The notes under the pieces are model-generated. The model had not been told where the DNA came from and did no database searches. It saw only the letters and a program-made list of their open reading frames with translations. The position numbers were made by a program, and so were the translations under genes. Shown here piece after piece: positions 3,478 to 55,500 of a stretch of 57,156 nucleotides of DNA. How positions within the stretch are numbered: position 1 is the first letter of the stretch; each line of letters starts with the position of its first letter. Origin of the DNA: Candidatus Moranbacteria bacterium CG10_big_fil_rev_8_21_14_0_10_35_21 (GTDB lineage Bacteria > Patescibacteriota > Minisyncoccia > Moranbacterales > UBA2206); NCBI GenBank assembly GCA_002773095.1, contig PFCG01000022.1:1-57156 (forward strand), written 5' to 3'.

Positions 3478-4971
3478 ATGTCTATGGAAATTATCACTAT
3501 TGAAAACGTTTTAAAAAGTATGCGGGTAACCGTCACTTCTCAGAGAGAAGCTTTAATTAGAAAAGCTTATGATTTTGCTTTAGCGGCTCATCATGGACAA
3601 AAACGCAAATCCGGAGAAGAATATATTCAACATTCCTTACGCACCGCTCTTAACTTGGCCAACATGGGAATGCGTTCACGAACAATCGCCGCCGGCCTAC
3701 TTCATGATGTGCCCGAAGATACGTCCGTTACCCTAGACGAGATTGAAAAAAATTTTGGAAAAGAAATTGCTTTCCTTATTTCCGGAATTACTAAGTTAGG
3801 AAAAATAAAATTAAGAGAAACCAAGGAAGAACTTTATTTAGAAAATCTACGTAAAATGTTTTTAGCTATGGCTTCTGATATTCGGGTTGTGATTATTAAA
3901 CTAGCTGACCGTTTGAATAATATGGAAACCCTGGATGCTTTATCGGAAGAAAAACAACGCCGCATTGCACTGGAAACTATGGAAGTTTACGCACCCATCG
4001 CCAATCGATTGGGTATTGGAGATATGAAAGATAAATTAGAAGATTTATCTTTCAAATATTTGGATAAAGAAAACTACGAAAAAACCCAGAAGCTTAAGGA
4101 AGAGGCTTTAGGAAAAAGCAAAAAATTTATCATCTTAGCTACCACTGAAATTAAGAAGGAATTGAAAAAAAGCGGAATCAAAGTCGTTGATGTTTTTGGG
4201 AGAACTAAACATCTTTACAGTCTTTATCAAAAATTGAAACGCTATGATATGGATATCGCTAAAGTTTACGATCTCTATGGAGTTCGGATAATTGTTCCGG
4301 AAGTAGCTGATTGTTATGAAGCCCTGGGTATCGTTCATAAAAAATATCATCCTTTAATTGGAAGGATTAAGGATTATATTTCTCTGCCTAAGCCTAACGG
4401 TTATCAATCAATTCACACTACAGTTTTTGGACCAGACGGCTTAATTATGGAGGTGCAGATTAGAACCCAAAAAATGGACATTGAATCTGAATTCGGAATC
4501 GCTGCTCATTGGATTTATTCCGATCATCGAAAAGATTGGAAAGACTTTTTCTTCAAAAAAGCTAAGCCTATTCCTGAAGAAGAATTAATTTGGGTTAAAC
4601 AACTTCGCGAATGGCAAAGTGAACTAGGTAAAGATAATCAAGAATTCGTGGAAAGTCTAAAAATAGATTTTTTCAAAAATCATATTTTTGCTTTTACTCC
4701 AATGGGAGATATTATTGATCTTCCGGAAGAAGCCACCCCTATTGATTTTGCCTATAAGGTTCATAGTCAAATCGGCCATCGCGCTGTCGGAGCCAAAGTA
4801 GATAAACGCATTGTTCCCTTGGATTATAAAATTAAAAATGGAGAAGTAGTTGAAATTATCACTTCCAAGGAAACTAAAAATCCCAGTCGCGATTGGCTGA
4901 GATTTGTGAGAACTTCTATGTCCAAAAGTGCTATTCGAAAAACACTTAAAAAAAACGATTTACTTAATTAA
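3478..4971 (+). CDS. short RelA/SpoT homologue: HD hydrolase + (p)ppGpp synthetase + TGS, no ACT/RRM tail
   Basis: HD region HHGQKRKSGEEYIQH...LLHDVPEDT. Synthetase region YGVRIIV...GYQSIHTTV...EVQIRTQKMD...AAHWIY. TGS region IFAFTPMGDIIDLP...GAKVDKRIVPLDYKIKNGEVVEI. The first ATG after the topA stop is at 3478. Confidence 0.85.
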   Translation: MSMEIITIENVLKSMRVTVTSQREALIRKAYDFALAAHHGQKRKSGEEYIQHSLRTALNLANMGMRSRTIAAGLLHDVPEDTSVTLDEIEKNFGKEIAFLISGITKLGKIKLRETKEELYLENLRKMFLAMASDIRVVIIKLADRLNNMETLDALSEEKQRRIALETMEVYAPIANRLGIGDMKDKLEDLSFKYLDKENYEKTQKLKEEALGKSKKFIILATTEIKKELKKSGIKVVDVFGRTKHLYSLYQKLKRYDMDIAKVYDLYGVRIIVPEVADCYEALGIVHKKYHPLIGRIKDYISLPKPNGYQSIHTTVFGPDGLIMEVQIRTQKMDIESEFGIAAHWIYSDHRKDWKDFFFKKAKPIPEEELIWVKQLREWQSELGKDNQEFVESLKIDFFKNHIFAFTPMGDIIDLPEEATPIDFAYKVHSQIGHRAVGAKVDKRIVPLDYKIKNGEVVEIITSKETKNPSRDWLRFVRTSMSKSAIRKTLKKNDLLN

Positions 4972-5928: not shown

Positions 5929-6717
5929 TTATACGGAAAAATTAGTTTTTGTATTTTTATCTCTTTCGATAATTTCTCTGGCTAAATTTTTATAAGCTCT
6001 CGCACCTTTGGATAATGAATCGAAATTTAAAATCGATTTACCAAAACCAGGTGCTTCAGCTAAGCGGACTGATCTAGGAATAATACTCTCAAAAACATGC
6101 CCAGGAAAATGGTCACGCACTTCTTTGATTACTTGGCGAGACAAACGATTTCTCTTATCATACATAGTCAACACAGCTCCCATTATTTTTAATTCCGGTT
6201 GAAGATTTTCACGCACTAAATTTATCGTGCTCAATAATTGACTTAAACCTTCCAAGGCAAAATATTCAGTCTGGACCGGAATAATTATTTCATCGCTGGC
6301 CACTAAACCATTAATGGTTAGTAATCCAAGACTAGGTGGAGAATCAATAATTATATAATCATAGTTGGTGCGAATTTCCCGTAAAACATTATACAAACGA
6401 AATTCTCGATTATCCAAGTGGACCAACTCTATTCCAGCTCCGGCTAAATCCTGTGATGATGGCAGTAAGTCATGACCGACTGTTTCAGTTTTAATAATAA
6501 TTTTTTCCGGATGTTCTCCCAACACCATAGAATGATAAAGACTTTTTTCAAGATTCCTAGTGTCAACACCGATACCAGAAGAGGCATTGCCTTGCGGATC
6601 CAAATCAACTAGCAACACAAACTTTCCGGCTTCCGCCAGATAGGTTGCCAGATTAATGGCGGAGGTGGTTTTTCCCACTCCTCCCTTTTGGTTGACTAAA
6701 GAAATAATTTTCGCCAT
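5929..6717 (-). CDS. parA: chromosome partitioning ATPase ParA/Soj
   Basis: Deviant Walker A KGGVGKTT directly after MAKIISLVNQ, then DLDPQGN and IIIDSPPSLG. The tracked ORF extends upstream to 6819 but the family N-terminus begins at the ATG at 6717. Confidence 0.9.
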   Translation of the reverse strand: MAKIISLVNQKGGVGKTTSAINLATYLAEAGKFVLLVDLDPQGNASSGIGVDTRNLEKSLYHSMVLGEHPEKIIIKTETVGHDLLPSSQDLAGAGIELVHLDNREFRLYNVLREIRTNYDYIIIDSPPSLGLLTINGLVASDEIIIPVQTEYFALEGLSQLLSTINLVRENLQPELKIMGAVLTMYDKRNRLSRQVIKEVRDHFPGHVFESIIPRSVRLAEAPGFGKSILNFDSLSKGARAYKNLAREIIERDKNTKTNFSV

Positions 6718-6760
6718 AATTAAGTATATTATACTATGGTTTACGGTATATTCAAAAAAG

Positions 6761-6844
6761 GCCACTGTGGTGAAATTGGTATACACGCAGCACTCAAAAT
6801 GCTGTGGGGGCAACTCCATGTCGGTTCGAGTCCGACCAGTGGCA
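6761..6844 (+). tRNA. tRNA-Leu (anticodon CAA), class II with long variable arm; CCA not encoded
   Basis: Hand-folded cloverleaf. Acceptor GCCACTG/CAGTGGC plus discriminator A. D stem GTG/CAC. Anticodon stem CAGCA/TGCTG with loop CTCAAAA. Variable arm TGGGGGCAACTCCAT. T arm GTCGG-TTCGAGT-CCGAC. Confidence 0.9.
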
Positions 6845-7028: not shown

Positions 7029-7226
7029 ATGATAGCGATTATAAAAAAATATCTCGAAGAAAATCCCAAAATAAAAAAAATAGTGGCTATATTTATGATT
7101 TTTATTGGTTTTATAGCTCTTATCACGCCTTTTTCGCCTGGCTCATGGTTACTGTTTGTTGGATTTGAATTATTGGGCTTGAGAGTTTTATTTTTTAATA
7201 AAATAAAATTTTGGAGGAGGAAATAA
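7029..7226 (+). CDS. small two-TM membrane protein (PGPGW-like motif TPFSPGSW), function unknown
   Basis: 65-aa ORF with two hydrophobic spans. An opposite-strand ORF (7007..7231) covers the same DNA and looks less protein-like. Confidence 0.4.
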   Translation: MIAIIKKYLEENPKIKKIVAIFMIFIGFIALITPFSPGSWLLFVGFELLGLRVLFFNKIKFWRRK

Positions 7227-19623: not shown

Positions 19624-21327
19624 AAATCCTACGACAAATTCATAAGATTAGCAATTAAAAGAAACCCGCAAAGCGCGGAGGATTTTTTAGCACTGAAAAA
19701 GGAATTATCGGGAAAATTCAAATTGCCAATGGATACCAACGCTAATATCCGAGAATACTATGAAAAAATGATCAAAAATCGCCAAATCAAGCGTCATTTA
19801 AAATTTGAGGAAATTTTGCAAAGCCGAAAAATACGCACCCAATCCGGTGTAGCTGTGGTGGCTGTGCTCACTAAACCCTCAGATTGCCCAGGAAAGTGTC
19901 TTTATTGCCCGACTGAAAAAGGAATGCCCAAAAGTTATCTTTCTAATGAGCCAGCCGTAATGCGCGCCATTGATGCCAAATTTAATCCCTATCTGCAAGT
20001 CCAAAATCGGCTTTATGCTTTAGAAATTAACGGACACAAGACCGACAAAATAGAATTGATTGTGATGGGAGGAACTTTTTCGTATTTTCCTAAAAAATAT
20101 CAGCAGTGGTTTATCACTGAATGTTTTCAAGCAGCCAATGAATATGATAGAAGAATTCACCATGTTAAATCTTCCGCTAAAGCGGAAATGCTCGAAGAGC
20201 AATTTAACAGGGCAAGCAAGCGCAATGAAACGGCCAAACACAGAATTATCGGACTAACACTAGAGACCAGACCTGATTATATTGATGAAAAAGAAATTTT
20301 AAATTTCCGCCATTTGGGTTGCACGCGAGTGGAATTAGGCGTGCAAAGTATTTTTAATTCGGTCCTCAAAAAAAATAATCGCGGTCATGATATCCAAAAA
20401 ACCATTGATGCCACTCGCCTTTTGAAAGACGCGGGATTTAAAATCAATTATCATATTATGCCAGGCCTTCTTGGATCCAGCTTGAAAAAGGATTATGAAA
20501 TGTTTCAAAAATTATTTTCTGATTCTGCCTTCCAACCGGATATGTTGAAAATTTATCCGACTGTGGTTTTGAAAAATTCCAAACTGTATAAAGTCTGGAA
20601 GCAAAAAAAATATATACCGCTCACTGACAAAAATTTTCAAAAGCTAGTAGTTAAAATAAAAAACGATTTGATTCCGCCATACGTCAGAATTTCTCGCTTG
20701 GTGCGTGATGTACCATCTACCTCCATCATTGCTGGACCAACAATTTCCAACTTACGCCAAATCATCGCCAAAGAATCTCGATGCCAATGCATCCGTTGCC
20801 GAGAAGTCCGCGCGAGTTACCCGCCCACATCCCGCTCTGGACGGGAAGTGTGTCGGGCAGGTGAAATAAAACTTAATCGTATCAATTACAAAGCTTCGGG
20901 CGGGAAAGAAATATTTTTACAATATGTCTCTCCTGACAAGAAAAAATTATTTGCTTTACTGCGACTAAGAATTCCGTCTTTCGCGTGTCATCCTGAGCGA
21001 GTGAAACGAGTCGAAGGATCTAATCCAATTAGATTCCTCGATTGCACTCGGAATGACAAATTATATGAATTATTACCAGCACTAAAAAACGCTGCTCTTA
21101 TCCGTGAAGTACATACCTATGGAAAAGTGACCGCGATTAATAAAAAAGATAAAACTTCTCCTCAACATATTGGTCTTGGGAAAAAATTGATGCTAGAAGC
21201 GGAAAAAATCGCCAGGAAAGAATTTAAATTAAATAAAATTGTAGTAATATCAGGTATCGGCGTGCGAGGTTATTACAAAAAATTAGGTTATCGACAAAAA
21301 GACACATATATGATAAAAAGTATTTAG
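19618..21327 (+). CDS. elp3: Elp3-family radical SAM + GNAT acetyltransferase (tRNA U34 modification type)
   Basis: RTQSGVAVVAVLTKPSDCPGKCLYCP radical-SAM cluster region. TIM-barrel blocks (IELIVMGGTF, RIIGLTLETRPD, GCTRVELGVQS). C-terminal GNAT (IREVHTYG...GLGKKLMLEAEKIA). Confidence 0.85.
   Translation: MHKSYDKFIRLAIKRNPQSAEDFLALKKELSGKFKLPMDTNANIREYYEKMIKNRQIKRHLKFEEILQSRKIRTQSGVAVVAVLTKPSDCPGKCLYCPTEKGMPKSYLSNEPAVMRAIDAKFNPYLQVQNRLYALEINGHKTDKIELIVMGGTFSYFPKKYQQWFITECFQAANEYDRRIHHVKSSAKAEMLEEQFNRASKRNETAKHRIIGLTLETRPDYIDEKEILNFRHLGCTRVELGVQSIFNSVLKKNNRGHDIQKTIDATRLLKDAGFKINYHIMPGLLGSSLKKDYEMFQKLFSDSAFQPDMLKIYPTVVLKNSKLYKVWKQKKYIPLTDKNFQKLVVKIKNDLIPPYVRISRLVRDVPSTSIIAGPTISNLRQIIAKESRCQCIRCREVRASYPPTSRSGREVCRAGEIKLNRINYKASGGKEIFLQYVSPDKKKLFALLRLRIPSFACHPERVKRVEGSNPIRFLDCTRNDKLYELLPALKNAALIREVHTYGKVTAINKKDKTSPQHIGLGKKLMLEAEKIARKEFKLNKIVVISGIGVRGYYKKLGYRQKDTYMIKSI
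20987..21057. repeat. 71-nt hairpin element (family A arms, no ORF) in frame in elp3
   Basis: GTCATCCTGAGCGAGTGAAACGAGTCGAAGGATCTAAT-CCA-ATTAGATTCCTCGATTGCACTCGGAATGAC. Encodes CHPERVKRVEGSNPIRFLDCTRND. Confidence 0.7.
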
Positions 21328-25941: not shown

Positions 25942-28413
25942 TTAAATTACAATACTTATTAACTTTCCTTTGACAAAAATAATTTTCTTAATTTTCTTTC
26001 CGGAAATTTGAGATTTTATTTTCTCACTTTCCACTGCCAATTTTTTGGCATCTTCTTCAGTGATATCTGCGCTTACTCTTAATTTATCTCGCACCTTGCC
26101 ATTTATTTGAATAACTAACTCGATTTCTTCATCCTGAATCAGTTTTTCATCATATTTAGGCCAGGCTTCTAAAAATATAGATTTAGTGTGTCCTAGCTTT
26201 TTCCAAATTTCTTCAGCGATGTGCGGAGCAAAAGGAGATAATAGTATTAAATATTTTTCATATTGTATTTTGGATATTGATTCTTGTTTATCTAATTCGT
26301 TAGCGAAAATCATCATTTGGCTAATGGCCGTATTAAAGCGTAAGCTCTCAATATCATTTGTAATTTTTTTAATCGTTTTGTGAAATAAGCTTTCTAACTT
26401 TTTATTGGTGATATTTTTGTCCGTTATTTTTCCGGCGTTTTTATAAACTTTTTCCAAAAACCTCACGATACCCACAATCCCTTTTGTATTCCACGGTTTC
26501 ATATCCTCCAATGGCCCCATAAACATTTCAAACATTCTTAAGGAATCTGCACCAAATTTTTCCACCACTTCATCTGGATTCACCACATTGCCCTTGGATT
26601 TGGCCATCTTGTTTCCGTCTTCAGCTAAAATTATTCCCTGGTGACGTAGTTTCAAAAAAGGTTCATCAAATTTAATATGACCAAGCTTGTGTAAAACTTT
26701 GGTAAAAAATCGCGCATAGAGCAGATGCAAAACCGTATGTTCCGCTCCTCCAACATACAAATCTACCGGCAGCCATTTCTTAATTTGCTCTTTGCCGGCA
26801 AAAGCCTTTTTATTTCTTGAATCGGAATAGCGGAAATAATACCAAGAGGAGCAAACAAATGTGTCCATCGTGTCAGATTCTCTTTTTGCCTCACCTCCGC
26901 ACTTCGGACATTTCACATTATGAAAACTTTTGGATTTTTTAAGTGGTGACTCTCCAGTTGGATTGAAATCAACATCCGTCGGCAACATCACCGGCAAATC
27001 TTCTTCCGGAACAGGAATTTCTCCTTGCCTCGCCGGATCAAGGTGGGCGCATTTTTCGCAATAAATAATCGGAATGGGCGCGCCCCAATATCTTTGACGA
27101 CTTACCAACCAGTCACGCAGTTTGTAATTTATTTTTTGGCTACCCAATTTATTTTCAGTCAGCCATTTCGTCATTTCTGCACGTGCTTTTTCAGAAATCA
27201 TCTTTGTAAATTTTCCAGAATCAAATAGCACACCGTCAGCAGTAAATATTTTATCTACCTTTTTTTCTCCTTCTATTACTTCCTTTATTGGCAACTTATA
27301 TTTCTGCGCAAATTCCCAGTCGCGTTCATCATGCGCTGGAACAGCCATTACTGCGCCAGTGCCGTATTGCGCCAAGACATAATCCGCGACAAACAAAGAC
27401 ACTTCTTCATTGGTAAAGGGATTAATAACTTTTATGCCTTTAATTTCTACGCCAGTCTTCTCTTTAGCTTCCATCCGCATCAAGTCAGATTTTTTCTTGG
27501 ATTTCTCAAGATATTTTTCCACTTCTTTCAGATTTAAAATTTGCTCCGCTAACTGTTGGACTATTTTGTGTTCGGGAGCAACAACGCAATACGTACACCC
27601 AAAGATAGTATCTACACGCGTAGTGAATACCTCTATAAAGTTTTTATCATTATTTAATTGGGATTTGTTTAGAAATTTGGAATTAGAAATTAGAAATTTT
27701 ATCGTTGTCCCTTCGCTACGCCCAATCCAATTTCTTTGCGTTTGTTTGGTAGATTCCGGCCAATCCAATTTTTCCAATCCAGAAAGTAATCCTTGAGTTT
27801 TTCCCTTGTCCTCAATAAAATCCGTGATTTTAAAAAACCATTGCTCTAAATCTTTTTGAATCACTTTATTGCCACATCTTTCACACACTCCATTTTCGGA
27901 TTGTTCGTTCGCCAAAACCGTTTGGCACGATTCGCACCAATTCACTTTAGCTTTGGCCTTATAAGCTAATTTATTTTTATATAACTGCAGAAAAAACCAT
28001 TGCGTCCATTTGTAGTATTCTGGATCTGAAGAATTCACTTCTCGCGACCAATCATAGGAAAATCCCAATTTGCCCATTTGAGCTTTGAAAGTAGCAATGG
28101 CTTTTTTGGTTGTTTCAGTCGGATGAATTTTGGTTTTAATAGCATAATTTTCCGCCGGCAAACCGAAAGCGTCCCAACCTTGCGGATGCAAAACATTTTT
28201 TCCTTGCAAGCGATAATAACGCGACATAATATCCGTGGCCGTGTATGATTCCACATGCCCGACATGGAGACCCTCTCCTGAAGGATAAGGAAACATATCC
28301 AAAATATATTTCTTTTCTTTTTTTGAATCATCGTTCACCGCAAAAAGTTCCGGATGTTCGATCCAATACTTTTGCCATTTGGCTTCAATTTCTTTCGGAT
28401 TATATTTTTCCAT
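25942..28413 (-). CDS. leuS: leucyl-tRNA synthetase
   Basis: HVGH (PYPSGEGLHVGHV) and KMAKS motifs and the CP1 editing domain. The ORF opens with GTG at 28419 and the ATG is at 28413. Confidence 0.95.
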   Translation of the reverse strand: MEKYNPKEIEAKWQKYWIEHPELFAVNDDSKKEKKYILDMFPYPSGEGLHVGHVESYTATDIMSRYYRLQGKNVLHPQGWDAFGLPAENYAIKTKIHPTETTKKAIATFKAQMGKLGFSYDWSREVNSSDPEYYKWTQWFFLQLYKNKLAYKAKAKVNWCESCQTVLANEQSENGVCERCGNKVIQKDLEQWFFKITDFIEDKGKTQGLLSGLEKLDWPESTKQTQRNWIGRSEGTTIKFLISNSKFLNKSQLNNDKNFIEVFTTRVDTIFGCTYCVVAPEHKIVQQLAEQILNLKEVEKYLEKSKKKSDLMRMEAKEKTGVEIKGIKVINPFTNEEVSLFVADYVLAQYGTGAVMAVPAHDERDWEFAQKYKLPIKEVIEGEKKVDKIFTADGVLFDSGKFTKMISEKARAEMTKWLTENKLGSQKINYKLRDWLVSRQRYWGAPIPIIYCEKCAHLDPARQGEIPVPEEDLPVMLPTDVDFNPTGESPLKKSKSFHNVKCPKCGGEAKRESDTMDTFVCSSWYYFRYSDSRNKKAFAGKEQIKKWLPVDLYVGGAEHTVLHLLYARFFTKVLHKLGHIKFDEPFLKLRHQGIILAEDGNKMAKSKGNVVNPDEVVEKFGADSLRMFEMFMGPLEDMKPWNTKGIVGIVRFLEKVYKNAGKITDKNITNKKLESLFHKTIKKITNDIESLRFNTAISQMMIFANELDKQESISKIQYEKYLILLSPFAPHIAEEIWKKLGHTKSIFLEAWPKYDEKLIQDEEIELVIQINGKVRDKLRVSADITEEDAKKLAVESEKIKSQISGKKIKKIIFVKGKLISIVI
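27656..27700. repeat. AT-rich (T)CTAAAT-type repeat segment in frame in leuS
   Basis: AATTGGGATTTGTTTAGAAATTTGGAATTAGAAATTAGAAATTTT encodes ISNSKFLNKSQLNN just before the conserved FTTRVDT block. It shares words with the 28964..29090 spacer. Confidence 0.45.
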
Positions 28414-28507
28414 ATACACCCAATTTTACCTTATTCCAGGTTTTTTTTCAAAAAATTAAAAATCTCAAGAATTGAAACCCTTACCCACATAATGGAAAAA
28501 TGTGCTT

Positions 28508-30698: not shown

Positions 30699-31748
30699 CT
30701 AGTTTTCCAACGCTGCTCTACCCGCACTTATCTCTGCAATCTCTTGCGTAATCTTTCCTTGTCTAATCTGATTGAAAATAAAGGTCAGATCTTCGGACAT
30801 TTCTCCGGCTGCATCAGTTGCATTTCTCATGGCCATCATGCGAGCCGATTCTTTGGAAGCATTGGATTCCAGAATAGCATGATAAACCTGCATTTCAATC
30901 AAACGTGGAATAATATATTTCAAAACCTCTTCCGGACTCGGTTCCACTTTATATTCTGCTATTGGTTCTTCCAATCCATATTCCTTGGCGAGCACATCCA
31001 TTTCGGCAATTTGTTTTTCCAAATCAATTTTGGAAATCGGCAACATTTGCCTCACTCTGGTTTCCTGCTTGATGGCGGAAACATAATCAGTATAAAAAAC
31101 TACCACCTTGTCATACTTTTTATTTAAATATTTTTCAATCACAATTTTAGAAAGCGGTCTCACATCTTCACTCCCAGGCAAATAATTCAATTGCGGAAAA
31201 GAGGCAATAATTTCCCCGACTGCAACGCTACGCCCGTCGCTATGACTGCCGTCAGTCTGTTGAGCTGGCGAAGCATCTCGGGCAAGCGTAGCATTGCGGG
31301 CAGGTTTTTGCATCCGGCGCAAAGCATTCTCCCCTTTTTTTCCAATAGTAATAAAATCTATACGCAATTCAGCATTGGAAATTTTGGACTCAATCTTTTT
31401 TATTCCCGCTCTATTAATTTTTAAATTCACTGGATTTTCAATTTCGTCTTTCATTCTTTTGATCAACTGCGAATTGAAAGAACTGCATAGTCCTCGATTA
31501 GCAGTAATAGCCACCGCTAGCACTGATTTTACTTCTCGCACTTCCAACAGTCCACTATGAGTAGATTCAAAAGCCCGAGACAGATTAGTCAGCACCGACC
31601 AAGCATTGTGAGCATAAGGACGAATAGCCAAAACCGAAGACACCGCTCGGCGCATTTTGGCAGCCGAAACCATCTCCATCGCTCGAGTTATTTTTTTGGT
31701 GTTATTGATTGATTTGATTCGGCGACGAATGTCGCGAGTTGAAGCCAT
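30699..31748 (-). CDS. atpG: ATP synthase F1 gamma subunit (with a large in-frame insert)
   Basis: MASTRDIRRRIKSINNTKKITRAMEMVSAAKMRRA start and C-terminal ITQEIAEISAGRAAL. About 60 aa longer than is usual for the family. Confidence 0.9.
   Translation of the reverse strand: MASTRDIRRRIKSINNTKKITRAMEMVSAAKMRRAVSSVLAIRPYAHNAWSVLTNLSRAFESTHSGLLEVREVKSVLAVAITANRGLCSSFNSQLIKRMKDEIENPVNLKINRAGIKKIESKISNAELRIDFITIGKKGENALRRMQKPARNATLARDASPAQQTDGSHSDGRSVAVGEIIASFPQLNYLPGSEDVRPLSKIVIEKYLNKKYDKVVVFYTDYVSAIKQETRVRQMLPISKIDLEKQIAEMDVLAKEYGLEEPIAEYKVEPSPEEVLKYIIPRLIEMQVYHAILESNASKESARMMAMRNATDAAGEMSEDLTFIFNQIRQGKITQEIAEISAGRAALEN
31222..31297. repeat. GC-rich imperfect palindrome in frame in atpG
   Basis: GCAACGCTACGCCCG ... 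CGGGCAAGCGTAGCATTGC with inner hairpin GACTG-CCGT-CAGTC. Encodes NATLARDASPAQQTDGSHSDGRSVAVGE. Its G+C is visibly above the surroundings. Confidence 0.55.
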
Positions 31749-31799
31749 AATATTAAAATAATCAAGATACAAGATACAATAACCAAACAAATTTCAAAT

Positions 31800-32180
31800 T
31801 CAAATATTCAATTGCTTATTTTCTGTTTTTTTGATAATTGCCAACAAAATATTCTTTAACTCCATTCCTTCTTGTTTTAATTCTTGTATTCTGGATTTAA
31901 ATTCCGGATTATCTTCTTCAATCAACTCCAGCCAATGCAGTGTTTCTTTTGCTTCTTTTCTGGAAATTTTCATCCGATGTATAAAATCTTTTTTTCCTAA
32001 CGCATCATTAGCTTCTCTATAATTTGCTCCTACTGAACCGGCAGAACCTGCCGTTTGCCCCGTTAATCTATTGTTTATCGAATCTTTCGGCAATGATTTG
32101 CATAATCTTATTACTCTTTTTGCAAATTCAGCAGTTCTTTCTTCTAAATCAAATTTATTTTTGTTTTGAGTATTGGTCAT
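31800..32180 (-). CDS. four-helix-bundle protein (23S rRNA intervening-sequence protein family)
   Basis: FDLEERTAEFAKRVIRLCKSLPK...GQTAGSAGSVGANYREA...KDFIHRMKISRKEAKETLHWLELI matches that family. Confidence 0.8.
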   Translation of the reverse strand: MTNTQNKNKFDLEERTAEFAKRVIRLCKSLPKDSINNRLTGQTAGSAGSVGANYREANDALGKKDFIHRMKISRKEAKETLHWLELIEEDNPEFKSRIQELKQEGMELKNILLAIIKKTENKQLNI

Positions 32181-32208
32181 TTTAATTTGCTTGTATCTTG
32201 CTTCTTGG

Positions 32209-33798
32209 TTATTGGTGATTGGTATAAACTTCTTTGAATTCTTTAATACTCTTTTCCAATGCCTTCACTACTTCTTCCGTCAATTCTTTCTTTTCTATGA
32301 TTAATTTCAAAGTTTCTTTGCCACTTCCTTTCAGATATTTGTGAAAATCATTCTCCCATTTTTGGATTTCTTCCACGGCCACATCATCCACAAATCCGTT
32401 GGTCAGGGCATAGAGAATCACTACTTGATTTTCCACTGCCATCGGTTCGTATTGCCCTTGCTTCAAAATTTCCACCGTTCTTTTTCCTCTTTCAATTTGA
32501 CGCCTAGTATTTTCATCCAAGTCAGAACCAAATTGTGCAAAGGCTTCCAATTCTCGAAACTGTGCCAAATCCAAACGGAGTTTTCCAGCCACTTTTTTCA
32601 TAGCTTTGATTTGCGCGGCGGAACCCACTCGAGAAACGGAAAGTCCTGCATTAATAGCCGGGCGAATGCCTTTATAGAATAAATCAGATTCCAAATAAAT
32701 TTGTCCGTCAGTAATAGAAATAACATTGGTTGGAATATAGGCTGAAACATCTCCAGCTTGGGTTTCAATGATTGGCAAAGCAGTGAGCGATCCTCCACCA
32801 AAATCTTTATTAAGCTTTGCTGAACGTTCCAAAAGTCGGGAATGCAAATAGAAAATATCTCCAGGATAAGCTTCGCGTCCCGGTGGTCGACGCAAAATTA
32901 ATGACACTTGCCGATACGCCCAAGCATGTTTAGATAAATCATCATAAATTACCAGCACGTCTTTGCCTTGGTCCATAAAGTATTCTCCCAGTGAACAGCC
33001 TGAATAGGGCGCAATATAGGAAAAAGCAGCTGGATCAGACGCTCCTGCAATCACAACAGTCGTATATTCCATAGCTCCCTTTTTTTCCAATTCAGCCACA
33101 ATACGTGCAATTTTAGATTCTTTCTGACCAATAGCCACATAAATACAAATCATGCCTGCCCCGTGATCGCCGTTAGGCGATTTTACGGGGTTCTGCCCAT
33201 TCTTCTTCAATTTATCCCATTCATATTTCTGATTTATTATGGCATCCACTGCAATGGCAGTTTTTCCAGTTTGTCGGTCACCAATAATCAATTCTCTTTG
33301 ACCGCGACCAATTGGAATCATCGCATCAATCGCCTTAATACCAGTTTGCACTGGCTGATTCACTGATTGACGAGTAATAACCCCTGGAGCAATTTTTTCA
33401 ATCGGATAAAATTTTTCTGAGCTTATTTCTCCCTTTCCGTCCACCGCTTGCCCCAATGGATTGACCACTCTTCCAATCATATTTTCTCCAACTGGAATAG
33501 ACAGAATTTTGCCGGTAGATTTCACGGTGTCGCCTTCCTTGATTCCTTCAAAACTGCCCAAAATCATCGCGCCTACTTGACCTTCTTCTAGGTTCAAAAT
33601 TACACCAAAAATTCCGCCCGGGAATTCAATCATTTCTGAAGCCATCACGTCGGATAGTCCAGAAATTTTGGCCACGCCGTCTCCGACTTCAATAACCGTT
33701 CCGACTTTTTCCGTCGTCGCAGTGGTTTCAAAACCCTCAATTTGTTTTTTTAGTTGTTCGATGATGTAGTCTTTGCTTGCCCCGTTAATTTTTTCCAT
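32209..33798 (-). CDS. atpA: ATP synthase F1 alpha subunit
   Basis: Walker [18 protein letters not shown] and the C-terminal helical domain. Confidence 0.95.
33159..33190. repeat. 32-nt hairpin in frame in atpA
   Basis: CCCCGTGATCGCC-GTTA-GGCGATTTTACGGGG encodes [11 protein letters not shown] between the INQK and CIYVAIGQK blocks. Confidence 0.6.
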
Positions 33799-33891: not shown

Positions 33892-34329
33892 TTATTTAGC
33901 TAATTGAATTTTTAAATTTTTTAGTTGTGCCGATACACTTCCATCCATCACTTCGTCCCCCACTCGGATAATTATTCCACCTTGGATTTTTTCATTGATC
34001 ACATTATTTATTTCTACTTTTTCGATTTTACCTGCCCGCAATGCTTCGTATAGCGATGCAGGCGGGTATTTTTCTTTGATAAATTCCTCTAACTTTATAA
34101 CTTGAGAACCTGATAACTTTCGACTTGTAGTGGCCTCAACTTCGACAATTCCATTTCCTTTATTGTATATCTCTGAAAATTTTTCCACAATTTTTGGAAT
34201 CATTTTTGCTTTCCGAGCATTGACCAAAAATTTCGCGAAATTCAAAACAATGCCGTCAATCTCTTCGTGAGACTTCTCGTTTGTAAGCTCATATAATGTT
34301 TTCGCATATTGCGTAGCGGTTATTTTCAT
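33892..34329 (-). CDS. atpH: ATP synthase F1 delta subunit (OSCP)
   Basis: YAKTLYELT start, C-terminal GGIIIRVGDEVMDGSV and operon position. Confidence 0.85.
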   Translation of the reverse strand: MKITATQYAKTLYELTNEKSHEEIDGIVLNFAKFLVNARKAKMIPKIVEKFSEIYNKGNGIVEVEATTSRKLSGSQVIKLEEFIKEKYPPASLYEALRAGKIEKVEINNVINEKIQGGIIIRVGDEVMDGSVSAQLKNLKIQLAK

Positions 34330-34333
34330 ACGT

Positions 34334-34685
34334 GTCGTCCCGAGCTTGTCGAGGGATCTAATTTATAATGTTTTGTATAAATCCTTCCACTCTGGGTTAA
34401 TTTTATTAATTAAATTTACTTTTTTCTCTCTTCTCCACTTTTTCAATTGCTTTTCTCTTTCTAACGCACTTCTTACGTTTTCAGTTTGTTCAAAATACAC
34501 TAACTTATCAACATTGTATTTTTTTGTAAAACCATCGACTACTTTATGCTTATGCTGATAAATTCTTCTTTTCAGATCATTTGTAACTCCGATATATAAA
34601 ACCTTTGAGATACTTGATAAAATGTAAACGCAATATTGTCTCATTTTTATTTAATATTAGATCCTTCGACTTCGCTCAGGATGAC
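34334..34685 (-). mobile_element. GIY-YIG cassette bounded by ~30-nt imperfect inverted repeats (family A arms)
   Basis: Left arm GTCGTCCCGAGCTTGTCGAGGGATCTAAT at 34334..34362. The right arm (34656..34685) reads GTCATCCTGAGCGAAGTCGAAGGATCTAAT as its reverse complement. About 24 of 30 positions match. Confidence 0.65.
34363..34644 (-). CDS. GIY-YIG nuclease (COG2827/UPF0213 type), 93 aa
   Basis: YCVYILSSISKVLYIGVTNDLKRRIYQH...LVYFEQTENVRSALEREKQLKKWRREKK. Confidence 0.85.
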   Translation of the reverse strand: MRQYCVYILSSISKVLYIGVTNDLKRRIYQHKHKVVDGFTKKYNVDKLVYFEQTENVRSALEREKQLKKWRREKKVNLINKINPEWKDLYKTL

Positions 34686-34693
34686 ACATGGTG

Positions 34694-35182
34694 TCATTCA
34701 ATAGATTTCTCTATTAACTCCTTATCTTTTCTGGTGTCTAACTTCTCATTAATAATTTTTCCAGTTGCCGCCACAATCAAATCCGCCACTTCGGCCTTCA
34801 CCTCGGTGAACATCTTGGTTTTTTCGCTTTCAATTTTCTTTTCCGCATCAACTAATATTTTCTCGGCTTGTTTATTGGATTCAATAATAATTTCTTCCTT
34901 GTTTTTCGTTCCAACTTTTTCTGCTTCTGTAATTATTTTCTGCGCTTCTTTTTTAGCTTCGCCTAATATTTCTTTTTCTTTAGTCGTCATTTCTTCCATT
35001 TTTCTGGCTGCATTTTCCGCGTCTTTTAAGCCTTTATCAATTTTTTCCGTCCGATCATTTAATATTTTTAGAATTGGTTTGTAGGCGAATTTATAAAGCA
35101 CCAACAGCACAATAGTAAAGTTAACCATCTGTGCCAGAATTAATTTAATGTCTATATGAAATATTTTAACTAGTTCTTCCAT
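34694..35182 (-). CDS. atpF: ATP synthase Fo subunit b
   Basis: N-terminal TM LILAQMVNFTIVLLVLY followed by a long charged helix. Operon position. Ends in TGA. Confidence 0.85.
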   Translation of the reverse strand: MEELVKIFHIDIKLILAQMVNFTIVLLVLYKFAYKPILKILNDRTEKIDKGLKDAENAARKMEEMTTKEKEILGEAKKEAQKIITEAEKVGTKNKEEIIIESNKQAEKILVDAEKKIESEKTKMFTEVKAEVADLIVAATGKIINEKLDTRKDKELIEKSIE

Positions 35183-52562: not shown

Positions 52563-55500
52563 TTATTTTTTTACCTGAATCTTTAACTTTTCTCCATCAA
52601 CATCAAATTCTTTTTCCAAATCAAAATTTTCCAAAGTTTCTTTTATTTCATTGGCTAAAACTTCCTTGGCAATCAAATCATTAAACTTTTCAAATATCTC
52701 CTTGCCTCCAACATAGCCCACGCTAATATGATCGTCAACAACATAATCCGCTTCTTTTCTCATTGTTTGGATAAATCGAATAATTTCCCTCGCTTGGCCT
52801 TCCAATTTTAATTCGGGAGTGATTTCGATGTCTATCGCAACTGTTTCAGTCTCTGATCCTATTTCAGCTCCTTTAACATTTAATTCTTCAATGATAATAT
52901 TGCTCCATTCTGGTTTATTAATTAATTCATCAAAAACACTTTCATATTTTTTTCCAAGAATAACACGCTTTAAAGGTTGTCGAACCTTAATTTTATTTTT
53001 TGCCCGATCTTGTAATCCCAATGTTATAATTTCGCGAAGGGCACCCATATTTTCATTCAATTTTTCATCAATTAATTTTTCATCCGCTACCGGAAAATCA
53101 ACCAAATGAACCGATTCTTCGCCAGTTAGATTTTTATAAATTTCTTCAGATATGAAAGGTGTAAAAGGCGCCATTAATTTTGAAAGCTCCATCAGTGACA
53201 TATGCAAAGTTTGATAAGCGCTTTCCTTGTCGCCATCGTCCTCTGATTTCCAAAATCTTTTTCGTGATCGTCGAATATACCAATTAGAAAGATTATCTAC
53301 AAATTTTTCTATTATTCCGGCCGCGCCGTAAACATCATAGCTCTCTAATTTTTCGTCAACATTTTTGATTAATATATTCAACTCAGAAATAATCCATTTA
53401 TCCAAAAGATTTTCTGATTTCCATATTCCTTTTGTCTCCCATTGATCAATATTCGCGTAGAGTACAAAAAAAGAATATGAATTCCAAAGCATGCGGAAAA
53501 CCCGATTCATGATTTCATTCATGCCTTTGATATCAAATTTTTTCGTCATCCCTGGCTGATTAATTGTAAAAAGCATCCAGCGCAACATATCTGCGCCATA
53601 TTTATCCATTACTTCCATCGGATCAACTATGTTGCCTTTAGATTTACTCATTTTTTTACCTTTGCTATCTAAAATGAGATTTAAACAAATGACATTTTTA
53701 TAGGCATAGCCAGCTGGAACTTTTCCTGCTTTATTAAGTAATGTTGCGATGGCGTGCAAAGTATAAAACCAACCGCGTGTTTGATCGATGGCTTCAGAAA
53801 TATAATCTGCGGGGAAAAAATTTCCGCTTTCAATTTTTTTTTTGTCTTCTTTTGAAGCTTGGTTGGGATAGCTGAATTGCGCTAATGGCATAGATCCGGA
53901 ATCAAACCAAACATCCAAAACTTCTGGAACTCTTTTCATTTCTTCTCCACAAACACATTTAAATTTCACATCATCAATATATGGTTTATGTAAATCCTCT
54001 AGTTTTTGTCCAGACATTTTTTCCATTTCCGATATAGATTCAATGACTTTCAGTTCTCCGCACTTAGCACATTCCCAAATAGGAAGCGGCGTGCCCCAAT
54101 ATCTTTCTCGAGAAATCGCCCAATCCTTAACTCCGAGAAGCCATTCGCCAAATCTTCCTTCTTTGATATATTCCGGAATCCAATTTATGTTTTCATTATT
54201 TTTTCCCAGATCCGAAGAAAGTTCGCTCATCTGGATGAACCAGGATGGTTTGGCATAATAAATCAAAGGCGTATCGCATCGCCAGCAGAAAGGATATTCA
54301 TGTTCGTATAATTCTTCTTTTAATAATAATCCTCTTTCTTTTAAATCTTCTATAATCAACTCGTCAGCTGCATATTTATTTCTTTCGTTTTTCTTTTTTA
54401 CCGGAAGACCTTCGCCTGGAATATTAAACCCAGAGATTATTTTTCCGGTTTCATCCACGGTTAAAAGTGTTGGCAAATTATTTTCCCTACCAACATTAGC
54501 ATCATCTTCTCCGAAAGCCGGAGCAATATGCACAATGCCCGTTCCTTCTGAAGTGGAAACAAAATCTCCTGAAACTACATAATGCACTTTTTTGTTTTCT
54601 TTGTTCTCACTATTATATAAAGGCTCGTATTCAAGATTTAACAAATTTTTTCCCAAAAACCCACCTGCTATTTTATACTCTCCTTCAACAACACTCAGCC
54701 TATTTTTAGCTAAAATATAACAACTGTCATGCTGAACTTGTTTCAGCATCTCTTGAGATCCCGAAACAAGTTCGGGATGACATTTTATTTTTACATACTC
54801 AATCTCTTTATTTACCGCCAATGCCACATTCCCTGGCAATGTCCACGGCGTGGTCGTCCAAGCCAGAAAATAAGTATTGTCATCAATGCCCTTTTCCGGA
54901 TTTGGCTTAGCTTTAAATTTTACATAAATAGAATTATCTTTAACCATTTGATATCCTTGAGCAACTTCATGTGAAGAAAGAGTTGTCCCACAACGATAGC
55001 AATATGGCACAACTTTATGCCCTTTATAAATTAAGCTTTCTCCTTTTTTGTTTTTCGTTTTGAAAATTTGAGCCACCACCCACCAGACTGATTCAATATA
55101 TTTATTTTTATAGGTAATATATGGATTTTTCATATCCACCCAATACCCCATTCTTTCAGTTAATTTTTCCCATTGATCCTTATATTTCCAAACCGACTCT
55201 TTACATTTTTTATTGAATTCGATAATACTTTCACGTGGATTTCCGGGAACGATATTCTCTATTTCTTGCTTATTCTTAAGACCCATTTCTTTTTCTACCT
55301 GCAATTCCACTGGTAATCCATGCGTATCCCAACCAGCCTTTCTTTCCACTCGATAACCTTTCATGGTTTTGTAGCGAGGAATGATATCCTTAAATGCCCG
55401 TGCCAAAACATGATGCAACCCCGGCTGGCCATTAGCTGTCGGAGGACCCTCATAAAAAACAAAAGATTTATCAGAAGAATTTTTTTCTACTGATTTTTCA

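Follow-up and report, generated by a model that had tools for sequence, protein, structure and literature searches.

Ssn proteins are single-domain GIY-YIG nucleases of ~94 amino acids whose genes are flanked by cognate hairpin repeats (NTS/SRM) (Chenal et al. 2025, Nat Commun 16:2388, PMC11893778). The family corresponds to CDD model cd10448, and there is biochemical proof that Ssn binds its hairpin repeat as single-stranded DNA (ssDNA) and cuts just 5' of it. The GTC preceding the stem and the C following it are critical for cleavage and binding (PMC11893778). The same study mutated residues Y6, Y17, and E64 of SsnA, reported that Neisseria SsnA does not bind RNA, and likened the repeat-gene-repeat layout to an insertion sequence. 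In N. meningitidis, the documented role of Ssn is control of transformation, not mobility, and only 2% of NTS are intragenic (PMC11893778). A literature search covering the arm sequences described below, COG2827, follow-up work on Ssn, and in-frame palindromes in CPR bacteria retrieved nothing beyond this 2025 paper.

The window analyzed here, a stretch of 57,156 nucleotides from a Moranbacteria (CPR) genome, contains one ssn gene enclosed by inverted hairpin arms at the atpF-atpH junction and two gene-less pairs of such arms. We consider it probable, at roughly three in four, that the arm-gene-arm unit represents an Ssn-SRM module inserted in a lineage-specific manner. The features on which the argument rests are as follows.

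20987-21057: gene-less SRM pair in the Elp3 linker, in frame, GTC ends outward; units at 20987-21020 (plus strand) and 21032-21057 (minus strand)
33892-34329, minus strand: atpH, ATP synthase delta/OSCP (PF00213)
34334-34362, plus strand: left (downstream) arm, GTCGTCCCGAGCTTGTCGAGGGATCTAAT, an SRM-type unit read as GTC-GTCCC-GA-G-cttgt-C-GA-GGGAT-C-TAAT, GTC end outward, toward atpH
34363-34644, minus strand: ssn, a 93-amino acid single-domain GIY-YIG protein of the Ssn family (PF01541, E=9e-17; 51% identity to N. gonorrhoeae SsnA)
34656-34685, minus strand: right (upstream) arm, GTCATCCTGAGCGAAGTCGAAGGATCTAAT in the minus-strand reading, an SRM-type unit read as T followed by GTC-ATCCT-GA-G-cgaagt-C-GA-AGGAT-C-TAAT, GTC end outward, toward atpF
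34694-35182, minus strand: atpF, ATP synthase subunit b (PF00430)
54726-54781: gene-less SRM pair of a second class in the editing-domain region of IleRS, in frame; units at 54726-54750 (plus strand) and 54757-54781 (minus strand)

The two cassette arms are inverted and ~29 nucleotides long; their alignment, which needs one gap, has 24 matches in 30 columns. On the operon strand, a single ORF lies between them, the 93-amino acid ssn, whose stop codon directly adjoins the left arm and whose ATG lies 12 nucleotides from the right arm. Eight nucleotides separate the atpF stop codon (34694-34696) from the upstream arm, and the downstream arm ends 4 nucleotides from the atpH ATG (34327-34329). A sequence-only reading of this DNA had described the flanking arms, their 24/30 match, both spacings, and the lone ORF as cargo; all were re-derived from the sequence, the last for the operon strand.

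The encoded protein has the size and domain content of an Ssn nuclease: the GIY-YIG domain spans residues 3-77, and no other significant domain was found in the Pfam search. As the gonococcal SsnA reference, we used the 94-amino acid ORF that lies in the N. gonorrhoeae chromosome among 9 canonical NTS within 3.3 kb. Comparison with this reference by BLASTP gave E=1e-30 (45 identities over 89 positions), and tblastn against the chromosome gave E=2e-20 at 50.6% identity and 95% coverage, both below the threshold of E < 1e-10 set for Ssn homology. Pairwise alignment places Y7, Y17, and E64 of the window protein opposite gonococcal Y6, Y17, and E64, and oriented hairpin repeats (SRM) stand on both sides of the gene. 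NCBIfam yielded no family match. A sequence search of the PDB returned no close solved relative, the sole solved one being UPF0213 BH0048 with a weak E=0.06; the fold is taken as settled because of the homology. Together with the NCBIfam result, the weakness of that match indirectly favors cd10448 over cd10456/UPF0213 as the CDD model of the window protein. The sequence-only reading had known of no formal description of a GIY-YIG nuclease paired with dispersed hairpins, a statement that has to be withdrawn, as Chenal et al. describe exactly such a pairing (PMC11893778). Because the Ssn-SRM system was published in 2025, the pairing is not a discovery of the present work, which extends the Ssn family to CPR bacteria.

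Beyond the cassette, the sequence-only reading had placed gene-less arms in frame within elp3 and a close variant within ileS, and both hold: each pair is in frame, the long ORFs are intact, and the added residues are extra relative to solved homologs. In elp3, which encodes an intact 569-amino acid Elp3, the pair plus the preceding T adds 72 nucleotides, equal to 24 amino acids (CHPERVKRVEGSNPIRFLDCTRND). The first 14 and last 14 nucleotides of the left unit match the upstream arm of ssn, with a longer loop between them. The solved Elp3 5l7j has about 24 residues fewer at the insert site, and the four closest orthologs (79-82% identity) lack the insert. Within an alignment of 121 sequences (120 orthologs and that of the window), at least 30 have a linker insert at one common site, representing several repeat classes that differ between genomes. 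In ileS, the units are perfect 8-bp hairpins (ATGCTGAA/TTCAGCAT and ATCCCGAA/TTCGGGAT), and the pair plus one flanking base adds 57 nucleotides, or 19 amino acids, to an intact 1010-amino acid IleRS; alignment with solved IleRS 8c8v leaves a 16-residue gap exactly at the insert site. For both genes, a palindromic repeat is present in frame within the coding sequence and absent from the solved homologs. No second ssn copy for the ileS repeat class was found in the 57-kb window. Such in-frame repeats in essential proteins, rare in Neisseria, matter for the annotation of CPR proteins and for the tolerance of selfish DNA by tiny genomes.

All six arm units of the window consist of GTC, a stem, the complementary 3' half, and then C. 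Their positions come from a regular expression that describes the 5' halves alone, one among several patterns, of which looser ones also matched non-unit sequences. Stem differences between copies are compensatory (ATCCT/AGGAT, ATTCC/GGAAT, and the two ileS stems given above). By nearest-neighbor DNA folding, single arms reach -1.5 to -2.6 kcal/mol, no better than shuffles (z about 0); support for the stem thus comes from compensatory variation and not from energy. The cassette arms form a "GAG...CGA" class in which the stem contains tandem G/A mismatches. The published SRM string, HGTCWYN(0-2)YYVSBRHN(0-5)WNVSBRGN(0-2)RNCYNB, and the published NTS string worked on the gonococcal locus as a positive control and matched none of the arms in the window; for the SRM string there was no match anywhere in the window, the arms remaining unmatched even with one substitution. 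This mismatch is a limit of the string and not of the biology, the GTC and the C being kept. Because the published strings miss the window arms, we wrote a structure-based detector, which in its strict form demands GTCAT, a 5-bp stem, a loop, the complementary stem, and then C. The strict detector returned 6 units in the window against 1.2 +/- 1.1 in 200 dinucleotide shuffles, and the 26-mer arm core at up to 3 mismatches has an expectation of 0.00 occurrences in shuffles. Across related loci, the SRM string matches 27 of 288 units and captures the NTS-like class only. That string overlooks the repeat class seen most often beside homologs of the window protein, and genome surveys using it therefore undercount. 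An extra unit-like match at position 27170 may be a chance occurrence.

The expectation that such arms accompany this GIY-YIG family elsewhere was examined in 80 metagenome loci encoding homologs 53-72% identical to the window protein, where outward-facing arms flank the related genes far above chance. A unit pointing gene-ward lies within 120 nucleotides upstream in 50 of 71 loci, compared with 1.4 in shuffles, and a mirror-oriented unit lies downstream in 42 of 71, compared with 1.7. With the strict detector, units occur on both sides in 33 of 67 loci. The GTCAT motif is ~7-fold enriched in the upstream flanks of homologs, and ~74% of correctly oriented GTCATs, counting both flanks, continue into a complementary stem plus C. 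Repeat class is also shared within loci: in 26 of 34 loci, the two flanking arms are of one class (permuted mean, 8.7), and 27 of 50 distant units have the same class as the resident arms of their locus (permuted mean, 10.3). Some close homologs are flanked by the NTS-like sequence GTCATTCCCGCGAAAGCGGGAATC. Close ssn homologs lie in unrelated genomic contexts, and each has its own outward-facing arms. As judged from these sequence comparisons, a specific tie between the arms and the Ssn-type GIY-YIG gene family is supported.

Junctions of related genomes, retrieved with AtpA, place the cassette in a comparative frame. The empty sites that the sequence-only reading had suggested seeking were found in most relatives, whose short atpF-atpH junctions (17-32 nucleotides in L028, L029, and L030, for example) lack the cassette. 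The arms are therefore not a conserved atpH leader, and the intergenic sequence at this junction is not conserved among relatives. Two relatives, L185 and L186, have an ssn cassette at the junction where the window has its own, and another, L024, has a different small cassette there. Relatives L023-L026, which fall in one clade with the window, L185, and L186, lack the ssn cassette. In L025, a gene-less pair occupies the atpF-atpH junction and ssn lies between atpG and atpD; at least five doublets occur within 9.5 kb, two of them flanking ssn. These are the first comparisons of filled, cassette-free, and alternatively filled sites for a repeat-ssn-repeat cassette, and they bear on present or past mobility. 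Mobility of the cassette is supported comparatively by this distribution, which could also reflect loss instead of gain. Neither a target-site duplication nor an excision product was seen; the flanks show only a T before GTCAT and an A after ATGAC, with no direct repeat. The cassette is common to three diverged relatives, so it has long been stable and may no longer move.

The best-surviving alternative starts from that persistence at one junction in three diverged relatives. It holds that the locus is a domesticated, no longer mobile host system, in which Ssn and the dispersed hairpins act as an ssDNA restriction device trimming incoming transforming DNA or replication intermediates beside the repeats, as shown in N. 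meningitidis, and the arms beside the gene are simply two more sites. The one function that experiments are known to have assigned to the family is modulation of natural transformation (PMC11893778), and dN/dS values of 0.05-0.12 against homologs indicate that ssn is under strong purifying selection. A host device fits less well with close homologs that occupy unrelated sites, each between its own outward-facing arms, and the insertion sites, amid an essential operon and in frame within essential genes, point to selfishness more than to adaptation; PADLOC, moreover, gave weak matches only (best E-value 0.0014) and no convincing defense family. We regard this alternative as unlikely, if far from negligible, and it is compatible with the Ssn-SRM explanation rather than exclusive of it.

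A role at the RNA level, with the arms serving as REP-like stem-loops in the polycistronic atp mRNA (for differential stability or the atpH start) and the nuclease gene as an unrelated passenger, is very improbable. Most relatives have a short, arm-free junction, arms accompany the gene in unrelated contexts as well, and Neisseria SsnA does not bind RNA, even though the arms do lie in a transcribed operon on the strand of its genes, with the downstream arm close to the atpH ATG and a GGGA 8 nucleotides upstream of that ATG. Rfam at gathering thresholds identified nothing but a tRNA elsewhere, and its sole match across the cassette was a meaningless snoRNA (E=0.44). A scan for promoters and terminators found no promoter-like or terminator-like site inside or adjoining the cassette; the four promoter-like matches in the scanned region all lie outside its vicinity, a count below that of shuffles. 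Expression of ssn, which is on the operon strand, by read-through within the atp operon is plausible, as is a putative role of the downstream arm in now supplying the atpH initiation region.

Even less credible is a free-standing GIY-YIG homing endonuclease that would cleave the atpF-atpH junction of cassette-free genomes, with repair then copying it into the cut. One junction is filled in three relatives, and the weak, generic GIY-YIG matches in PHROGs include "homing endonuclease with GIY-YIG motif" (E=6.5e-5), but the 93-amino acid protein comprises the catalytic domain only, with the DNA-binding domain absent. Its close homologs are found at many different sites, and the conserved partner is the flanking repeat rather than a target junction, whose intergenic sequence varies among relatives. 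Finally, the idea that the arms and the likeness of the elp3 and ileS pairs are random matches in an AT-rich genome can draw on the shuffle-level folding of single arms and on the match at 27170, and it is refuted, to near certainty, by the arm-core expectation of 0, the 6 units against 1.2 expected, and the like architecture around most of the 80 homologs.

Under the Ssn-SRM module reading, and by homology with the characterized Neisseria and Wolbachia enzymes, the window protein would bind each arm only as ssDNA, recognize it through the stem sequence and the following C, and make its cut 5' of the conserved (T)GTC, at a distance of a few nucleotides. With both GTC ends facing outward, the predicted cuts would lie immediately beyond the cassette ends, one on either strand. 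On this reading, the arm-ssn-arm unit resembles a compact selfish cassette in its behavior, and the gene-less doublets are non-autonomous copies of its repeat family. Within genes, where insertion itself is seen, selection would presumably retain only those pairs whose length is a multiple of three and whose frame (TGT-CAT...) is free of stops. To our knowledge, a GIY-YIG hydrolase alone cannot rejoin DNA. Single-strand breaks made by Ssn beside repeats, whether in transforming DNA as it comes in or at the replication fork, might be repaired through recombination between scattered copies of the repeat or through template switching among them, and such repair could copy or delete the segment between the arms and keep the repeats of one genome alike. 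This combination of Ssn breaks with recombination or template switching seems the most likely means of spread, a suggestion that we hold tentatively and at somewhat less than even odds. Slightly more doubtful, in our estimate, is a broader proposal that the arm-ssn-arm unit might still move, as a mobile element with a new type of mechanism. Such an element would use a hairpin-specific ssDNA hydrolase with no transposase or recombinase, gene-less pairs would spread by break-induced copying, permissive in-frame sites in essential genes of CPR bacteria (such as the Elp3 linker) and atp junctions would be repeatedly colonized or homogenized, and repeat class would track the resident nuclease.

As in the published Ssn-NTS/SRM systems, the window gene has on both sides oriented hairpin repeats that, apart from the GTCGT of the downstream arm, start with (C/T)GTCAT and end with AT-C, and gene-less copies lie elsewhere in the genome, two pairs of them within these 57 kb. 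The differences are the Moranbacteria host, the location of the cassette inside an atp operon, the "GAG...CGA" arm class that the published string misses, and the in-frame pairs in essential genes, as opposed to the 2% of NTS that are intragenic in N. meningitidis. In addition, ssn of N. gonorrhoeae and of L025 lies between complete repeat pairs, whereas that of the window lies inside one pair.

The analogy with REPIN/RAYT systems drawn in the sequence-only reading is apt in that one nuclease gene and empty hairpin doublets are seen. Both arrangements have an enzyme gene with inverted hairpin repeats on both sides and dispersed gene-less doublets, an enzyme that recognizes an ssDNA hairpin (for the window enzyme, by homology), and a genome-specific repeat class matching the flanks of the resident gene. 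RAYT (TnpA_REP), however, is an HUH/Y1 transposase, whereas the window enzyme is a GIY-YIG hydrolase with no covalent intermediate and no rejoining; an HUH (Y1) TnpA_REP transposase was rejected here, GIY-YIG being the only domain found. REPs are also extragenic by definition, whereas window copies occur within coding sequence as well. Like IS200/IS605 elements ("peel and paste"), the cassette would combine ssDNA recognition of subterminal hairpins with cleavage beside the hairpin, and it shows no terminal duplication, but it has neither TnpA nor TnpB, and its predicted cuts are on opposite strands rather than on one. A MITE or other terminal-inverted-repeat transposon was likewise rejected: inverted ends are present, but there is no target-site duplication. 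In the dRS3/NIME arrays of Neisseria, canonical NTS (a dRS3 subset) similarly bracket short intergenic segments as inverted pairs, and a further likeness is the identical NTS-like sequence beside some close homologs of the window protein; the Neisseria elements are intergenic arrays of many units, whereas the window has isolated pairs and one gene-carrying pair.

For the in-frame copies, the nearest parallels are short palindromes within protein genes. Rickettsia palindromic elements (RPE), in frame in protein-coding genes, were reportedly described by Ogata et al. in 2000. MITEs are reported in Coxiella protein genes (PMC5896051). Compared by description, these share with the window short in-frame palindromes in genes, including essential ones, and a tolerated added peptide; they differ in that the window repeats have a cognate nuclease gene and in that the Elp3 linker site is filled in at least 30 of 121 sequences. 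Every additional pairing of a nuclease with its hairpin may, moreover, offer a reagent that cuts ssDNA at a defined site.

The two cassette arms differ in one respect that touches recognition. The upstream arm keeps the GTC preceding the stem and the C following it. In the downstream arm, the first stem base is G and not A, giving GTCGT in place of GTCAT, and recognition may be weaker as a result. At the corresponding site of L185, the arm reads GTCATCCCGAGCTTGTCGAGGGATC, relative to which the downstream arm of the window has an A-to-G substitution.

The atp operon of the window lies on the minus strand in the order atpB, atpE, atpF, 93-aa ORF, atpH, atpA. The ORF, here called ssn, sits between two inverted arms. 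Units of this kind also form two pairs elsewhere in the window that enclose no gene.

Features of the ssn cassette, its neighbors, and the gene-less pairs
34694-35182, minus strand: atpF, operon gene 5' of ssn
34685 down to 34656, coding-strand reading: upstream arm, GTCATCCTGAGCGAAGTCGAAGGATCTAAT
34363-34644, minus strand: ssn, the 93-aa ORF between the two inverted arms
34334-34362: downstream arm, reverse complement of GTCGTCCCGAGCTTGTCGAGGGATCTAAT
33892-34329, minus strand: atpH, operon gene 3' of ssn
20987-21057: gene-less pair (elp3)
54726-54781: gene-less pair (ileS)

The sequence-only reading had delineated the cassette, spaced it 8 nt from the stop codon of atpF and 4 nt from the start codon of atpH, and reported both gene-less copies; all of this was borne out, including the identity of the arms in 24 of 30 aligned columns. 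The downstream arm directly adjoins the ssn stop codon, and the upstream arm lies 12 nt from the ssn start. Zero matches to the arm core are expected in shuffles, and a strict structural detector, which demands a perfect 5-bp stem and so undercounts units, found 6 units in the window versus 1.2 +/- 1.1 in 200 dinucleotide shuffles. The inverted-arm feature is thus real, correctly delineated, and not due to chance. Given the operon strand and a scan of the region that found no promoter-like or terminator-like sites inside or adjoining the cassette, ssn is likely expressed by read-through of the atp operon.

Residues 3-77 of the window protein match the GIY-YIG catalytic domain (Pfam, E=9e-17), with no second domain found by the Pfam search of all 93 residues. 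The Ssn family (CDD cd10448) was defined to comprise GIY-YIG proteins with a single domain and a length of about 94 aa (Chenal et al. 2025, PMC11893778). Ssn from N. meningitidis binds the Neisseria repeat NTS (CGTCATTCCCGCGMAVGCGGGAATCYRG), a 28-nt oriented hairpin repeat, solely when single-stranded; it cleaves a few nucleotides upstream of NTS and is inactive on duplex DNA and RNA (PMC11893778). Within NTS, the three bases preceding the palindrome count most for cutting, and the C immediately after it counts most for binding (PMC11893778). Against the N. gonorrhoeae chromosome, the window protein matched at 50.6% identity (E=2e-20, 95% of length covered) a 94-aa ORF situated among nine canonical NTS within 3.3 kb. 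Pairwise alignment (E=1e-30) pairs window Y7, Y17, and E64 with gonococcal Y6, Y17, and E64, the SsnA residues whose mutation abolished cutting (PMC11893778). Gonococcal homology, the NTS-rich locus, and the shared catalytic residues together identify the window gene as ssn and its arms as repeats of the SRM (Ssn-related motif) type. Purifying selection on ssn is strong, with pN far below pS and dN/dS of 0.05-0.12 (dS saturated). Two 2.17-Mb N. gonorrhoeae records labeled as plasmids (NZ_CP119140.1, L011; NZ_CP119142.1, H7) are evidently chromosomes and contain ssnA and the NTS array.

Every repeat unit has the same layout: (T)GTC, a stem beginning AT, a loop, the complementary stem, and C, with TAAT or TC usually next. 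Six window arm units were retrieved by a regular expression on 5' halves alone, one of several patterns tried, and the complementary 3' half followed by C was present in all six. Stems vary compensatorily among the window copies (ATCCT/AGGAT, ATTCC/GGAAT, GTCCC/GGGAT, ATGCTGAA/TTCAGCAT, and ATCCCGAA/TTCGGGAT). Inward of the 5-bp outer stem, the gene-flanking class has tandem G/A mismatches and then a G-C pair. By nearest-neighbor DNA energies, close pairs fold into long hairpins (z of -3.1 and -6.5) and single arms fold weakly (about -1.5 to -2.6 kcal/mol, z near 0), so the case for the unit hairpin rests on covariation rather than energy. The downstream arm of L185, a relative with the ssn cassette at the same junction, reads GTCATCCCGAGCTTGTCGAGGGATC, which shows the window counterpart, GTCGT, to be a point substitution. 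A lone unit-like hairpin, CGTCATTTCTG...CAGAAATC at 27170-27199 (plus strand), has a 7-bp stem, is preceded by C rather than T, and lies antisense to its host gene (825-aa ORF, 25942-28419, minus strand); with about one chance match expected, it may be spurious.

The association of gene and repeat extends to related loci. Among 80 metagenome loci with homologs 53-72% identical to the window protein, which are not phylogenetically independent, the strict detector placed a gene-ward unit within 120 nt upstream in 50 of 71 loci and a mirror unit downstream in 42 of 71 (1.4 and 1.7, respectively, from shuffles that preserve dinucleotides approximately). Both flanking units were present in 33 of 67 loci and opposite orientations were much rarer; such arms accompany related GIY-YIG genes, facing outward, far above shuffles. 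For comparison, SRMs on both sides were reported for 42% of Ssn homologs across bacteria (PMC11893778). An "unbiased" count of the GTCAT pentamer alone gave ~7-fold enrichment in ssn upstream flanks; across both flanks, ~74% of correctly oriented GTCAT were followed by a complementary stem and C. The base before GTC was T in 84 of 95 arms.

These units fall into several classes: NTS-like GTCATTCCCGCGAAAGCGGGAATC, the GAG...CGA of the window, GAAcTTgTTTC (like the ileS pair), and GAC...GTGGAG. The window stem reads ATCCT-GAG...CGA-AGGAT, whereas that of the published system reads ATTCCCGCG...CGCGGGAAT, and the published degenerate SRM string had no match anywhere in the window. Across the related loci, this string matched 27 of 288 units, all but three from the main NTS-like (CGC) class, and none of 137 GAG-class units. 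In 26 of 34 loci both arms were of a single class (permutations: mean 8.7, maximum 16). Class also agreed between the resident arms and units more than 300 nt away in 27 of 50 cases (permutations: mean 10.3, maximum 18). On a Planktothrix agardhii plasmid (L012, NZ_LR882964.1, 18847-19131), a 60.7% identical homolog lies between an MmeI-type restriction-modification gene and DISARM drmA; its arms are of the same GTCATTCTGAG...CGAAGAATC class, and on the downstream side they include truncated 5' halves repeated in a short tandem array.

To compare junctions, atp operons of 80 species were collected via AtpA, and atpF and atpH were located within them. The cassette-free sites that the earlier reading had suggested seeking were found: most atpF-atpH junctions are short (about 17-32 nt in the relatives L028, L029, and L030), and the cassette is absent from this junction in the closest AtpA-retrieved relatives (AtpA 75-80% identical). 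Of the ssn homologs on usable contigs, the two closest (84% and 78% identical; AtpA about 77%) also lie between atpF and atpH, so the insertion is old in this sub-lineage. Other close homologs (67-77% identical) have unrelated neighborhoods, each with outward-facing arms. In the relative L025, a gene-less SRM pair sits exactly at atpF-atpH, two further pairs lie between atpH and atpA, and the ssn homolog (69% identical), located between atpG and atpD, is bracketed by two complete pairs. At least five copies of a ~85-95-nt gene-less element, built of two outward-facing units around a related 33-37-nt spacer, occur within 9.5 kb of this atp operon (2545-2640, 3115-3210, 3795-3885, 6700-6795, and 7107-7195; two directly flank ssn).

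Other small elements occupy these operons. At the L024 atpF-atpH junction is a different small gene, by eye of the 23S_rRNA_IVP four-helix-bundle family, with its own GTTCACAGT-type flanking repeats. In the window, a 126-aa 23S_rRNA_IVP ORF (31800-32180, minus strand; PF05635, E=9e-17) lies between atpA and atpG; of its flanks (about 31760-31800 and 32180-32215), the upstream one carries CAATAACCAA and CAAGATACAAG and the downstream one their complements, the order unchanged. Given these two IVP genes, atp operon junctions appear to gather small cassettes of various kinds. In two other close relatives, the atpF-atpH junctions (L023:3440-3570 and L026:3510-3560) hold unrelated palindromes, with a GC-rich ~120-nt element in one and duplicated CAACATTCAATGTTGGGA in the other.

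By analogy with the 2025 homolog biochemistry, a hairpin arm would be recognized as single-stranded DNA and cut a few nucleotides 5'. Because both arms face outward, each strand would be cut once, immediately beyond the cassette. Since a GIY-YIG hydrolase cannot religate, spread would have to proceed by host recombination or template switching between dispersed repeats, initiated by a break beside a repeat. Such repair could copy or delete the segment between two arms and would keep one genome's repeats alike. This reading fits a junction that is occupied by the cassette in one species and by a gene-less pair in another, as well as the class shared by arms and distant units of one locus. Chenal et al. 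likened NTS-ssnA-NTS to an insertion sequence and to REP/RAYT, leaving mobility as a hypothesis (PMC11893778); the sequence comparisons here favor past mobility of the cassette. The main alternative emphasis is on domestication, in which Ssn would trim single-stranded DNA entering the cell, as in Neisseria; it does not conflict with the recombination reading.

The sequence-only reading knew of no formal description of this pairing, a statement now out of date: the feature belongs to the system published by Chenal et al. 2025 (PMC11893778), of which this copy is a CPR-genome member. Our analysis establishes that the gene belongs to the family, that oriented cognate repeats surround it, that repeat classes are genome-specific, that the insertion is polymorphic, and that ssn is under purifying selection. 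This copy is marked by a repeat class that escapes the published search string, an unusual location within the ATP synthase operon, and gene-less repeats in frame within essential genes.

The elp3 and ileS pairs keep long ORFs intact, with the frame TGT CAT CC... read as CHPE...ND. IleRS 8c8v has a 16-residue gap exactly opposite the window residues chpelvsgsqemlkqv, and Elp3 5l7j has about 24 residues fewer between LRLRIP and LIREVH. When 120 Elp3 orthologs were aligned with that of the window, the four closest (79-82% identical) lacked the insert. Codon-level comparison with one insert-free ortholog gives an Elp3 insert of 72 nt, made up of the pair and a single flanking base; counted likewise, the ileS insert measures 57 nt. 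The left Elp3 unit equals the ssn upstream arm over its first 14 and last 14 nt, with a longer loop. CH[PSAT]... inserts of several repeat classes occupy the same Elp3 linker position in at least 30 of the 121 aligned sequences; among them, CHSRESGNL is the canonical NTS read in frame, confirmed at the DNA level in the retrieved locus L183. This shared site may reflect an old insertion that the repeat class of each genome later replaced, recurrent insertion into a favored target, or the sole tolerated position.

Elp3 orthologs of CPR carry further short lineage-specific inserts after window residues about 329-331, 401-405, and 440. These resemble translated palindromic repeats (e.g., LPASLRETLQAG, PPRVDERTSPRVEAG, and PRSDLRSKSATG), suggesting that several repeat families lie in frame in CPR proteins. 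Within the window atpG (30699-31790), a GC-rich imperfect palindrome at about 31215-31300 (minus strand), CCCGCAATGCTACGC...GCGTAGCGTTGCAGTCGGGG, reads in frame as ...ARNATLARDASPAQQTDGSHSDGRSVAVG... and has the look of an inserted member of another repeat family. The atpG of L025 contains another palindrome, CCTTGGGGACTAAATCCCCAATTGGGGACTTAGTCCCCAAGG.
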